NCBI GenBank assembly: GCA_951406725.2
Contig: OX597814.1
Location: 219,914,001 to 219,978,000 of the forward strand
Length of the DNA stretch: 64,000 bases
Source: Octopus vulgaris
Lineage: Eukaryota
Reading direction: 5' to 3'
In this document: one piece after another, positions 1,031-48,975 of the stretch
Layout: each line of letters opens with the position of its first letter
Numbering within the stretch: position 1 is the stretch's first letter
Notes under the pieces: generated by a model
Told to the model about the DNA's origin: nothing
Seen by the model: the letters and a program-made list of their open reading frames with translations, nothing else
The model's database searches: none
Position numbers and translations under genes: made by a program

Positions 1031-2266
1031 TTTATTGAAGTAGATAAATGAATTATCTTATTACGGATTATTCAAATGATAACCGACACCTGGGTAGCAA
1101 AAATCACAACAGAAAAGCACGGTTGAGGTTACGACCATGGGGCCTAAAATCCGTGCCTTAGTGCGGAAATTTGAAGTTTTATATATTTAGTGTAGGAAGA
1201 AATGGAGCTGAACGAAGATTTAACAAAATTCCTTTTTATTATTTTCCACATATGTTTCAAAGGCTGCAAAGTCCCTAATTCGGATTGAATAAGGAGTCCA
1301 TTTTGCAGCCTTCTCTTCTCCAACAAAATGCACAGCAAGCTTTTCGACAAACGCTCACGAGGAGCCCATGGAATAAATGGCACAAACTGTCTATCACTAT
1401 GCGTTGACGCCAGGCTGGGTGAAAGCCGACGAGAAAGTCCGTTGAGATAATTCAAGGTCAAAATCCGGTTAACAGAAGGGGAGTGCAGGAAAATCAAAGA
1501 GTGTGAATGTATTCTGTATGACTGGTGTTAATATTTTAATTGTTTTAAGAGTGGGATTGGTTTCCGATATTAATACAGCGTTTCCGATATTAATACAGCG
1601 TTCTTAAATTTGTAAGGGGATATCACTCCCCTGTTAGTGTAAGAACTGCTAGTTATCTAGAACTGCTGTCAGGGATGTCACTGTATCCTGCCATGACCAT
1701 TGTTGACACCTCTCTATCAACTGGTTACAGACGAACACACAGACACAGTCTTTTCTGTTGCTTGACCATTAATATCTGCTATATCTCTTTCCCTTGATGC
1801 CTTCTAAACACACTGTCACACATACATAGACGCACACACACATACATGAAAACAATTTCTCACACTCAAACACTCTTAAAACAATTAAAATATTAACACC
1901 AGTCATACAGAATACATTCACACTCTTTGATTTTCCTGCACTCCCCTTCTGTTAACCGGATTTTGACCTTGAATTATCTCAACGGACTTTCTCGTAGACT
2001 TTCACCCAGCCTGGCGTCAACGCATAGTGATAGACAGTTTGTGCCATTTATTCCATGGGCTCCTCGTGAGCGTTTGCAGAAAAGCTTGCTGTGCATTTTG
2101 TTGGAGAATTAAGTTCCTGGATTTTCCTGAAGAGAAGGCTGCAAAATGGACTCCTTATTCAATCCGAATTAGGGACTTTGCAGCCTTTGAAACATATGTG
2201 GAAAATAATAAAAAGGAATTTTGTTAAATCTTCGTTCAGCTCCATTTCTTCCTACACTAAATATAT
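1031..2266. mobile_element. Fold-back non-autonomous Penelope-like/retrozyme-like unit; inverted arms 1181-1553 / 1871-2266
   Basis: ~370-bp inverted arms, (TA)n on both sides, hammerhead motif in the right arm. Confidence 0.7.
2121..2206 (+). ncRNA. Type I hammerhead ribozyme motif (long stem II, GUG at the cleavage triplet)
   Basis: AUUUUC-CUGAAGA-[GAAGGCUGCAAA...UUUGCAGCCUUU]-GAAA-CAUAUG-UG-GAAAAU; all three stems pair. Confidence 0.75.
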
Positions 2267-2479
2267 ATATATATATATATATATATATACACACACACAC
2301 ACACATATATATATATATATATGCATATATATATATATATATATATATATATATATATATATATGTATGTATATATGTATGTATATATATATATATATAT
2401 ATATATATGTATGTTTATATATATATATATATGTATGTATGTATATATATATGTATATATATATATATGTATATATATA

Positions 2480-3709
2480 TCTCTTATTATAAAAGGCAGA
2501 TTTTATCTGCCTCCCTTTGGGAGTTATACAAATCTACAATATAGGATTTCTTCAATTACAATTTACCTTGCATTTTTAAGAGTACAATGCATCGCGTCAT
2601 GCCAGCTCCAGTTTTTAAAATTTAAACTCCAGTTAAGCAAAATTTACAGAAAACTCACATTCTGGTGTGTGTGTCAAATGCTTTTCTTAGTCTGGTTTAC
2701 AGCACACGCAAACGCACACACACAGTGTGCAATGAATAAACTGAAACTAATTCACTGTGTGTTGACAGGTAGAAAATAGAATGCGATGGCTATGGCGATG
2801 GCGATGGCTATGACGATGGCGATGGCTATGGCGATGGCGCGCACACACACAGTGTGCAATGAATAAACTGAAACTAATTCACTGTGTTGACAGGTAGAAA
2901 ATAGAATGCGATGGCTATGGCGATGGCGATGGCTATGGCGATGGCGATGGCTATGGCGATGTCGATGGCTATGGCGATGGCGATGGCTATGGCGATGGCG
3001 ATGTAATATTTGTTTCTCTCTATGACGCTCATAAAAGCATTGATGTACATGTGTGCGTGCGTGAGTGTGTGTGTGTGTCATTCCTCACACACACGCATAT
3101 ACATACATATATGAGAGTGGCAAACACAAACGTTTCAAACAACTACATACAAACACGTGTGTGTTTGTTATTAGTAAAAAAAAGGCGCTAAAACACAACT
3201 CACTTATCATTCCAACACATTTGCAAAGACACACGGACGGTCGAATAACAATACAGAAAAGGTAAATTGGTTTTTATTTTACTCTGTATATATTTTATTA
3301 TATAAAAACCAAAAAATATTTTATTCTTTGTAAATGTTGTGTTCAAAATAACATTTTCTTTTAAGAATGTGTATATAACAAAGTATGTGTATATAACTAC
3401 GTGGCTTATATCTTTATATATAAGAGTGAAGTTGTGTGTCTGTCTCCTACGATTTAGATTCGTAACTACTCCCACATTTTGCGGTGTAGTTTAACCAAAA
3501 GCGGGTATCTTATAGTCGTGATTCATATCGAGCCCTTCTGGGTATTAGCGCGCGTCTACGATGAGTCTACGATTTTAAAAAAATTTACCATCATATTTTT
3601 CCATTTTAATGCATATTTTTCGTTATTATATAAGGGAAGTAACTCTCTAAAAATGCTTATATAGTTATTTCCCCTTACAAACCCGAGCAACGCCGGGCGA
3701 TACTGCTAG
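2480..3709 (+). mobile_element. Composite non-autonomous Helitron (5' TC at 2480, second 5' end at 3411)
   Basis: TC start, 3' hairpin cccgagcaacgccggg plus CTAG, A/T insertion site; internal (ATGGCK)n and ~117-bp duplication. Confidence 0.8.
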
Positions 3710-3880
3710 TATATATATATATATATATATATATATATATATATATATATATATATATATATATATATATATATATATATATATATATATATATATGTAT
3801 ATATATATATATGTATATAATATATATACATATATGTATATATATATATATATATATATATATATATATATATATATATA

Positions 3881-4612
3881 TAACGGGAGCTTTATGAAAA
3901 TAGACAAAAGACGAAGGCAGGTTTACGGAAATAAACAAAAGACGAAGGCAGGTGGAATACAAACAAACAATTGTATTAGTATGGCGCTCAGGAAATATAA
4001 ATAAAACAAGTCTTTAACGTTTCGAGCCTACGCTCTTTAACAGAAAGATACACAGAGAAAAAACACAGAAAGAAGGAGAGAAAAAAAATATGCGTGCAGA
4101 GGCTAGTGAATCAACAATATATATGTATATATATATATATATATATATATATATATATATACATATACATATATGTATATATATATGTATATATATATAT
4201 GTATATATATATATATATATATATATATATATATATATATATATATATATATATATATATATATATATATATATATATATATATATATATATATATATAT
4301 ATATATATATATATATGTATATATATATATATATGTATGTATATAATATATATACATATATGTATATATATATATAACGGGAGCTTTATGAAAATAGACA
4401 AAAGACGAAGGCAGGTTTACGGAAATAAACAAAAGACGAAGGCAGGTGGAATACAAACAAACAATTGTATTAGTATGGCGCTCAGGAAATATAAATAAAA
4501 CAAGTCTTTAACGTTTCAAGCCTACGCTCTTTAACAGAAAGATACACAGAGAAAAAACACAGAAAGAAGGAGAGAAAAAAATATGCGTGCAGAGGCTAGC
4601 GAATCAACAATA
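3881..4612 (-). repeat. Two tandem ~235-bp pLTR-like units (period ~494 bp incl. TA spacer) with degenerate minimal hammerheads at 4011-4048 and 4505-4542
   Basis: Near-identical copies; minus strand UCUUU-CUGUUAA-A-GAGCGUAGGCUC-GAAA-CGUU-AAAGA. Confidence 0.7.
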
Positions 4613-47345: not shown

Positions 47346-47920
47346 CAGTCATAGCCTACACCAGTGTCACATAACCAAGCCATTTAAAAAGTACCTTTGT
47401 ATCATCAGGTGACATACCGTGCTTGAGGAGTCCTATTCAGTTGAATAAAATCAAAATCAAGTCAAATCTAATGAGAATCAAATGGAAATTGTAATTATGG
47501 CCTATGCCAGTGGCACCTGACTGGCTCCTATGCTCATGGCATGCAATAAGCAACATGCATGCATGGGCCGTTACCAGTGCTGCCTGAGTGGCTTCCTGCA
47601 CCAGTGGTACATAAAAAGCACCATCCGAACATGGTTGATACAAGCCATCCCCGCTCTGACTGGCTCATGTGCCGGTGGCACGTGAAGAGCAGCATCCAAA
47701 GGTGGCTGATGCCAGTGCTGTGTGAATGGTTCCCATGTTGGTGGCACGTAAAACGTACCCACTATAATCTTTGAGTGGTTGGCGTTAGGAAAGGCATCTA
47801 GCTGTAGAAACGTTGCCAGATCAGATTGGAGCCTGGTGCAGCCTCCTGTCATGCCAGTCCCCAGTCAAACCGTCCAACCCATGCTAGCATGGAAAACAGA
47901 TGTTAAACGATGATGGTGAT
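47346..47920 (+). mobile_element. Composite SINE-like repeat with diverged ~60-bp internal units and (GAT)n tail; 3' part also at 58495-58673 (-)
   Basis: ggtggcacgtaaaa-type units; tail gttaaacgatgatg. Confidence 0.65.
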
Positions 47921-47960
47921 GTATGTATATATATGTGTGTGTGTATATATATATATATAT

Positions 47961-48408
47961 ATTAACAATTGAGGATAAAATCTTTAAAAGAAATTATCAG
48001 TAGTCAGCGTGAAAAACCTCGTTAGAGAAAAAATCCGTAAATTCTTCCTCTTTGAAAATATTCATTTATATTATATTGAGGGTACTACTATTCGTAGATA
48101 CCAACACGCTAAGAGGGACCAATGCGGTCAAAACTACTAAAAATAAACAAAATTTTACCGAATGCAAAACTTCAAAACACATCATTTTAAAAAAGAATTC
48201 AGTTACATATCACATGTGATTTCGCATTTAAATGCAGAATATGCATTTTATGTTCATCAGTGCAACAAACTCAAGAAATATAAGAGAAAAACATAACATT
48301 ACAAGCTCGATAGCCAACCGTAGAATTCGTCGTAGCATGTCCGAATGTTTATCTTTACATATCTATGAAAATGGCGGGCTTATTCGCAATGCATTTCGGT
48401 AACAAATT
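47961..48408 (-). mobile_element. Hammerhead-bearing pLTR-like unit in (TA)n
   Basis: TA tracts on both sides; ribozyme at 48202-48266. Confidence 0.65.
48202..48266 (-). ncRNA. Type I hammerhead ribozyme, AUA site
   Basis: GUUGCA-CUGAUGA-[ACAUAAAAUGCA..UGCAUUUAAAUGC]-GAAA-UCACAUGUGA-UA-UGUAAC; perfect 12-nt palindrome AUCACAUGUGAU. Confidence 0.87.
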
Positions 48409-48975
48409 ATATATATATATATATATATATATATAAATAGTATTGGTAAGACAACAAAAGACTGAACAAGACCTCGATATTATCTAAATAGAGGAATTTA
48501 TCTGTAATATAATATGTGACAAGTATTTGGTGCATGCAGAGTGTAATTGTCACATATTATATTACAGATATATATATATATAAGTATAGTGTTGTTGGAC
48601 ACTCAGGAAAGGATAGAAAGAAGGAGGATTAATGTATCAAGTGGAGCTCTTCTTCAGAAACATAGAAAAAGAAAAGGTCCAGGGAAGGGAAAGCGGAGGA
48701 AAAAAAATTGCCAACGATACACACGCAGTTACATTTTGAATCATATATATATATATATATATATATATATTTAAATATATATATATTTAAATATTTATGT
48801 ATAAATATATATATATATATATATATTTAAATATATATATTTAAATATTTATGTATAAATATATATATATATATATATATATATTTAAATATATATATTT
48901 AAATATATATTTAAATATTTATGTATAAATATATATATATATTTAAATATTTATGTGTGTGTGTATATATATATA

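Follow-up and report, generated by a model that had tools for sequence, protein, structure and literature searches.

Type I hammerhead motifs in a repeat-rich window of the Octopus vulgaris genome lie in the ends of Penelope-like elements and in short non-coding, retrozyme-like units

A window of 64,000 nucleotides of the Octopus vulgaris genome (assembly GCA_951406725.2, contig OX597814.1, positions 219,914,001 to 219,978,000; "the window" always means this whole stretch) was analysed for hammerhead ribozyme motifs. It consists almost wholly of repeats, namely (TA)n and (CA)n tracts, reverse transcriptase (RT) and endonuclease pieces of the LINE (long interspersed nuclear element) type and one Ty3-like fragment. 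Ten hammerhead motifs had been proposed in the window from the sequence alone, and all of them were located at the positions claimed in this original prediction. We label the families A (2121), B (4870), C (13919), D (14301 and 18638), E (24428), F (48202), G (4011 and 4505) and H (48627). The type I identity of the motifs was upheld by the core CUGANGA...GAAA...NUH, three stems and an open stem I.

A strict descriptor of core and three stems matched four sites in the window (2121 on the plus strand; 4870, 13918 and 24428 on the minus strand), while 100 local dinucleotide shuffles yielded a mean of 0.18 and a maximum of 2; the equal frequency in shuffled sequence that would have spoken against the original prediction was not observed. 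With a looser descriptor seven matches were obtained (shuffle mean 0.9, maximum 4), which added the minus-strand motifs 4011 and 4505 and a low-complexity false match at 51396–51459 that was removed from the count. The motifs at 14302 (−)/18639 (+) and 48203 (−) escape the descriptors through a mismatch in the first pair of stem II (U.U and A.C, respectively); their core, stem I and stem III are all intact. The motif at 48627 (−) is decayed and carries GATA in place of GAAA. The Rfam search that had also been suggested gave 147 matches at E ≤ 1 in the window, with no hammerhead family among them. This result and the false match at 51396–51459 are what chance matches in AT-rich repeat DNA would lead one to expect, but an approximately 20-fold excess over shuffles, the fixed placement of the motifs in the ends of Penelope-like elements (PLEs) and the compensatory changes described below reduce the probability of this explanation to a negligible level. 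The hammerhead motifs of the window are real.

Family B (4829–7784, −) is a 5′-truncated Neptune-like PLE with the RT thumb and GIY-YIG end (6750–7784), a microsatellite-rich 3′ untranslated region (UTR) of about 1.9 kb and the pseudo-long terminal repeat (pLTR). Its hammerhead (4870–4910, −) has a U3-A8 core, a palindromic minimal stem III and a predicted cut after 4874. The open reading frame (ORF) at 6750–7784 matches residues 418–762 of a 776-aa frame with RVT_1 (Pfam), DKG, a CX4CXXC linker and GIY-YIG. The genome searched comprises 2.80 Gb in 227 contigs, and the loci read were the 30 best matches per family (six for G), a choice that under-samples diversity. In all five long B loci the hammerhead lies 1.9–2.1 kb 3′ of the 776-aa RT and GIY-YIG ORF, and in four of the five it is also found 5′ of ORF1, resulting in tandem units of 5.7–5.8 kb. 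The 4870 motif is thus the pLTR of just that element (6704–7779) which had been named as a probable driver of the hammerhead families. Many open 776-aa frames at 99% mark the B element as young and abundant. It possesses a separate 447-aa ORF1 (L222–L225; C8:40709500–40719499 and others), intact in five of six starts, and the two frames overlap in −1 phase. The slippery-type T run at this junction is preserved in 15 of 18 reads, the first ATG of the RT frame overlaps the ORF1 stop, and the downstream hairpin is weak (−6.4); both frameshifting and re-initiation are possible routes to RT expression.

Family D (14215–17865, −) is a 5′-truncated Hydra-clade PLE comprising the last 20 ORF codons (17805–17864), a low-complexity 3′ UTR of about 3.4 kb and a pLTR with the hammerhead at 14302–14350. 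An inverted partner (17887–18693, +) carries its hammerhead at 18639–18687 and ends at the shorter terminus. The ORF, whose tip is contained in the window, is reached about 3.4 kb upstream of the hammerhead in two of ten long loci. Locus L251 shows the hammerhead and, 131 nt on, a 722-aa frame; for the other full ORF fetched (L252) the hammerhead was not found in the stretch taken. The ORF motifs DKT, the RWK-like RWR, CxCX5C, CxxC and CxH are those defining the Hydra clade according to PMC8557442, and a protein search with D returned 771 relatives, none giving a clade label. As a fixed part, the D 3′ UTR includes about 3 kb of low-complexity, (CA/TA)-like DNA (14522–17228 in the window; also L211), and the B 3′ UTR about 1.5 kb; PLEs may thereby spread much of the microsatellite-like DNA of this genome.

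Family A is represented by the 3′ UTR and pLTR of a 5′-truncated Hydra-like PLE (1604–2260, +), which ends at (TA)n and is 89.6% identical to locus L253, where the same sequence lies 3′ of an ORF. The hammerhead (2121–2206, +; predicted cut after 2200) has G17 (GUG) here and A17 or C17 in the family. An inverted, 5′-truncated partner (1037–1553, −) retains a hammerhead without the 5′ strand of stem I and the core start. Two of 30 loci (L009, L018) reach the ORF end, whose endonuclease end is 31% identical to that of D, and L267 shows a long frame followed by the hammerhead. DKT, CxxC and CxH are present in L267 and the CxCX5C linker is absent; A is therefore termed only Hydra-like. The L267 ORF has a long Asn-rich insert at the usual place of the zinc-finger linker. 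Among 14 ORF ends picked by position (73–92% identity; one interrupted), 13 are followed by the stem III motif, one of them without part of the core. In the alignment, from which L254 was excluded because of a UTR deletion, the 11 columns of the core do not vary in 11 of 12 copies, and identity is 0.82–0.87 around the ribozyme vs. 0.58–0.78 in the UTR.

Family G occurs twice as a short PLE 3′ end. Copy 1 (3882–4116, −) contains a minimal hammerhead (4011–4048, −) with the family core CUGUNGA, which is likely dead in the window owing to G8A; copy 2 (4376–4609, −) is a local duplicate 494 nt away, and its hammerhead (4505–4542) carries G8A and C11.1U. Upstream of the G 3′ region an endonuclease end (L216) and an RT stretch (L249) were seen, in two partial loci only. 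The CUGUNGA core (U6, position 7 variable) is present in nearly all copies seen of G, which is among the most abundant families. Family H (48582–48736, −) is a decayed minimal hammerhead unit (about 48627–48661) and weakly G-like. In A, B, D and G (in G from the two partial loci) the hammerhead was thus seen to lie downstream of a PLE-type RT that has an endonuclease at its C terminus. The tandem arrangement pLTR-ORF-pLTR was found for B and D, and not for A among the loci read; inversion and two ends were found for A, B and D. Pfam gave no match on the PLE fragment of the window and only weak noise on the D and A ORFs and on B ORF1. A, B, D and G are the 3′ ends (pLTRs) of 5′-truncated, ORF-encoding PLEs, two of them Hydra-like, one Neptune-like and one a further PLE. 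The proposed link between hammerheads and PLEs was hence correct, but the description of all families as non-coding and non-autonomous would hold only for C, E and F and has to be abandoned for A, B, D and G.

Family C is present as one whole non-coding, retrozyme-like unit of 490 nt between TA runs (13687–14181, −); its hammerhead (13918–14024, −) has an intact core and a predicted cut after 13926. Family E (24260–24660, −) consists of part of a 355-nt non-coding unit (24260–24528) and a rearranged inverted piece (24525–24660), with a hammerhead at 24428–24472 (−; U3.G8 core, predicted cut after 24434). Family F (47955–48414, −) comprises 460 nt of a 499-nt non-coding unit, and its hammerhead (48203–48265, −) shows an intact core, an A10.1.C11.1 mismatch and a 12-nt palindromic stem III. 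Two relatives of C complete the set: a diverged inverted pair (75–78%) at 18933–19302, in which the hammerhead part is absent, and a subfamily forming an inverted pair (about 91%) at 55905–56315, which retains the hammerhead 3′ half (56036–56056) and had been overlooked.

For each of C, E and F the short non-coding unit with its type I hammerhead was found in consecutive tandem units, spaced 489–492 nt (C), 352–355 nt (E) and 499 nt (F). The longest ATG frames measure 26, 45 and 56 aa, and the GC content is 0.36, 0.44 and 0.31, respectively. Hand counts, with overlapping loci merged, gave tandem units at 10 of 16 C sites and an inverted ribozyme-bearing partner at 9, tandem units at 4–5 and inversions at 11 of 28 E sites, and one complete and two partial dimers with 11 inversions among 26 F sites. 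As circles, C and E are predicted to be 65–68% paired, a fold prediction without shuffle control. No tRNA was found in the units. As originally supposed, the families are unrelated: C, E and F show no real similarity to one another or to six PLE references of this genome, which holds many more PLE families. Two candidate parents of C were rejected: a Hydra-type ORF 470 nt upstream of the C copy in L040 belongs to a separate element with its own hammerhead and a TA run between, and an ORF piece in L054 is likewise part of a separate element. At 1260–1394 of L040 lies a further Hydra-type PLE carrying its own hammerhead, and 25 nt of its antisense sequence are joined to the C copy next to it, at the 5′ end; this is a single case, for which a template switch or a repair insertion is possible. 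The C unit and its unit junction are covered by contigs of four of four sequencing runs, whose RNA status was guessed, no run being recorded as RNA; tandem DNA gives the identical junction, and contigs reveal neither RNA ends nor circles. C depth was 2,000–24,000 in run X1 vs. 18–430 in the three others and is unusable as expression evidence.

One could regard C, E and F as the repeated pLTRs of autonomous PLEs, the coding copies having escaped sampling, or as satellites amplified by recombination at the DNA level. Only the 30 best loci per family were read out of 900–1600 candidates, and F has a single complete dimer among its 26 sites, both of which leave room for such an origin. However, copies longer than one unit re-enter the same unit sequence, 17 of 42 C copies continue to +400 as unit sequence and none into an ORF, and dispersed copies with fixed ends and inversions suit retro-insertion and not unequal crossover. 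We therefore judge this origin improbable. C, E and F are short non-coding repeats of the retrozyme type and are likely carried along by PLEs.

The insertion footprint is the main ground for proposing mobilisation by PLEs. Copy ends cluster at two positions, counted from the predicted cut: +67/+212 (A), +51/+99 (B), +131/+237 (C), +23/+89 (D), +175/+222 (E) and +150/+253 (F), all slightly shifted by chance pairing with the TA run. Inverted partner copies are frequent in all six families tested (A–F). The TA-embedded setting that had been proposed was confirmed for most families, since (TA)5 or longer adjoins the ends in 30 of 38 A, 39 of 39 B, 22 of 25 C, 26 of 30 D and 28 of 32 F copies, but in just 14 of 36 E copies. 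Optional tails, inverted truncated partners and a TA bias are described as traits of PLEs (PMC8557442), and in an anole PLE the tail is as long as the spacing of two internal start sites of the RT (PMC11167929). The two clustered ends of A–F match this signature of a tail and two start sites (PMC11167929, PMC8557442). Because the non-coding units share the PLE end footprint, mobilisation of C, E and F by PLE proteins is suggested.

Read strictly, with 6704–7779 as the driver and not just as an example of one, the original prediction would make all families non-autonomous ribozyme retroelements of this element. The youth and abundance of B and the lack of ORFs in C, E and F agree with such a single driver. 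Nevertheless, A, B, D and G extend upstream into PLE ORFs of their own, 6704–7779 turned out to be the parent of 4870, and C, E and F share no meaningful sequence with B or with the five other PLE references, which renders a single driver very improbable.

The cores differ by family in a fixed manner: U3-A8 in B, U3.G8 in E and a relative of it, and U6 with N7 free in G, together with mismatches at 10.1-11.1 (U.U in D, A.C in F). The cleavage triplet remains NUH across families. In the window the copies of B, C, D, E and F match their family cores, and damage is seen as a private G17 in A, G8A in both G copies and loss of GAAA in H. Several window copies look dead, and lone copies would mostly be dead ends. 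No insertion with two intact same-strand ribozymes was found in the window, and unit-length or circular RNA is therefore possible only from tandem arrays elsewhere. Among relatives found by sequence (14 comparisons) pairing is kept in 15 of the 16 pairs in which both bases have changed, compared with 4/9 under the null, besides 6 one-sided changes and 9 single changes that break pairs; the corresponding p = 5e-5 is overstated, as the copies are related and hand-picked. Stem III is palindromic or near-palindromic, and in A–F its self-duplex (−7 to −17.5 kcal/mol) is more stable than the monomer hairpin (−1.4 to +6.0), which is consistent with the dimer model in the accessible texts of PMC4209133 and PMC6765202. 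Self-cleavage and circular RNA have the standing of predictions.

The motifs might instead be kept as structures for protein binding or packaging that rarely cleave in vivo. Young families have fixed non-canonical cores (G with U6, E with U3.G8, D and F with the 10.1-11.1 mismatch), and PLE ribozymes are reported to have low or protein-dependent activity. Yet the catalytic nucleotides are invariant against a drifting UTR and the triplet stays NUH within families, so that we consider this explanation unlikely.

Taken together, we hold it highly probable that the window contains the truncated 3′ ends of four coding PLEs and three non-coding units, each with a type I hammerhead, likely inserted at (TA)n via target-primed reverse transcription by PLE proteins. 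The observed basis is the position of the hammerheads relative to ORFs, the ORF-less tandem units of 490, 355 and 499 nt, the two fixed 3′ ends, the inverted 5′-truncated partners and the palindromic stem III. By analogy with what is known of PLEs, the RT-GIY-YIG protein would bind tandem or read-through transcripts, nick AT-rich DNA and start cDNA synthesis at either of two internal sites 3′ of the ribozyme. Early stops and inversion would leave ribozyme-bearing stubs, and such stubs would account for the pile-up of hammerhead motifs. The ribozymes would cut mainly as dimers of neighbouring units paired via stem III, or with the help of a protein, thereby freeing unit-length RNA from tandem arrays; from C, E and F this release could yield putative retrozyme-type circles.

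Several points weigh against this interpretation. The sequence link between C, E or F and the six PLE references is limited to a match of 15 nt and a single weak row in tblastx, and the E ends depart from the (TA)n setting, as noted. The count of 15 in 16 uses hand-picked relatives with motif-anchored parsing, mostly from C, E and F, and stands beside the nine single changes that break pairs; in the A set defined by position 0 of 26 pairs are compensatory, and covariation equals that of shuffles (342 of 500 as high). The clade names of the PLEs are motif-based, and Pfam called RVT_1 for B alone. In the literature, as far as the accessible texts go, cleavage in vitro was seen for only one of nine predicted retrozymes of frogs (bioRxiv 10.64898/2026.07.22.740005), and the anole PLE ribozyme was dispensable for insertion in vitro (PMC11167929).

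The set in the window had been called dense. With one common descriptor the window gave 6 matches in 64 kb (5 real) vs. 4 in a blind genome sample of 14 stretches of 5 kb (shuffle means 0.27 and 0.25), a difference without significance (p = 0.74). Enrichment specific to the window is rejected by this equal density, and the window is genome background in hammerhead density. Extrapolation yields about 160,000 motifs in the genome (44,000–410,000, Poisson 95%), a rough number because the blind sample covers 70 kb only, and a lower bound because some families are missed by the descriptor. First-look candidates numbered 1369 (A), 878 (B), 1642 (C), 995 (D), 1315 (E), 924 (F) and 2730 (G), and the 932 kb of loci contained 51 different motif strings, the majority having a palindromic stem III and a few being clearly spurious. 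The families are multi-copy and young, the 40 scored copies per family being mostly 97–100% identical.

A further-reaching reading is that C, E and F are active retrozymes with a PLE footprint and abundant circular RNAs, and that in young families the non-canonical cores (U6, U3.G8, a mismatch at 10.1-11.1) do cut, being rescued through dimer formation or a PLE protein. We put this forward tentatively, the balance being somewhat against it. If true, C, E and F would be direct genomic evidence that circular or multimeric RNA serves PLE proteins as the template for copying retrozymes. Hammerhead motifs on the order of 10^5, derived from numerous PLE families, represent an apparently unannotated layer of the genome. 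Furthermore, the young, near-identical C arrays and the intact B and D proteins offer a test set for asking what protein moves retrozymes in animals and if it requires cleavage to do so. Of continuing interest are the retrozyme-like units with the two-site tail footprint of PLEs and the fixed core variants U6 and U3.G8.

The remainder of the window includes LINE-type elements with endonuclease and RT domains at 8365–12616 (−), 19950–24096 (+), 35703–37919 (−), 44942–47412 (+) and 49879–55687 (−), some of which show long open frames and an ORF with a Myb-like beginning, and the Ty3-like LTR (long terminal repeat) element fragment at 43245–43964 (−) with RNase H and integrase zinc-binding domains. 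Besides these we noted a GC-richer tandem array of 62/125 nt at 63381–64000 that continues past the window end, a 125-nt dimer with a 6-nt microsatellite at 2713–3003 and a 240-nt inverted repeat at 34406–34643.

The families belong to known kinds, and as a class they are nothing new: PLE pLTR hammerheads and non-LTR retrozymes are described in PMC4209133, PMC7229834 and PMC8557442. In the literature on octopus or cephalopod hammerheads, retrozymes and Penelope, on core variants and on ORF1, frameshifting and Neptune elements the families were not found described; the supplements of PMC13282606, Repbase and Lunse et al. (2017) may hold them. The main text of the retrozyme survey PMC7229834 mentions no cephalopod, and a 2026 octopus repeat annotation reports 31 recently active Penelope-like families in a main text that never uses "ribozyme" or "hammerhead" (PMC13282606). 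The comparisons that follow refer to the accessible parts of the papers cited. With the PLE pLTR hammerheads of PMC4209133 the octopus motifs share type I topology, a short palindromic stem III, an extra base after A9 (G, H), U3-A8 covariation (B) and an occurrence mostly as lone motifs of truncated PLEs, in thousands per genome, with opposite-strand pairs 100–700 nt apart. They differ in that stem II of A and C is long and branched and that stem III measures 8–16 nt in several families. The fixed U6 (G), U3.G8 (E) and U.U or A.C at 10.1-11.1 (D, F) were not found in that paper, nor was the U6 core of G found described in the literature on core variants; Lunse et al. (2017) may cover such variants. 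A natural A6C hammerhead variant is reported to be slow (PMC3088659).

Similarities to Hydra-clade PLEs (PMC8557442) are a C-terminal endonuclease with CxxC and CxH, DKT, (TA)n targets, a hammerhead, tandem and inverted insertions and the optional tail. Nevertheless, D has its 3.4-kb microsatellite-like 3′ UTR whereas Hydra elements are described as shorter than 3 kb, A has the Asn-rich insert and no CxCX5C linker, and tails measure 48–145 nt here vs. 30–40 nt. B resembles Neptune/Nematis-type PLEs, by motif match only, in DKG, the CX4CXXC linker, the C-terminal GIY-YIG, TA targets and tandem units of 5.7–5.8 kb. It differs from them by the separate 447-aa ORF1, with its slippery-type run and its −1-phase overlap with the RT frame; canonical EN+ (endonuclease-containing) PLEs are described as single-ORF, and a killifish Neptune is reported to have two non-overlapping ORFs (PMC12602865). 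C, E and F are like metazoan non-LTR retrozymes (PMC7229834; a 2026 preprint) in being non-coding low-GC units of 355–499 nt that each bear a single type I hammerhead, in their repetition head to tail, many monomers, PLEs alongside and highly paired predicted circles (65–68% in C and E). Homology to a PLE pLTR is a retrozyme trait in the preprint; for C, E and F no such homologue was found among the six PLE references of this genome, which holds many more families, and their footprint of two-end tail, inversion and TA target is not analysed in the accessible texts of either source. Judged by the features tested, A, B, D and G are placed with the PLE pLTR hammerheads and C, E and F with the non-LTR retrozymes.

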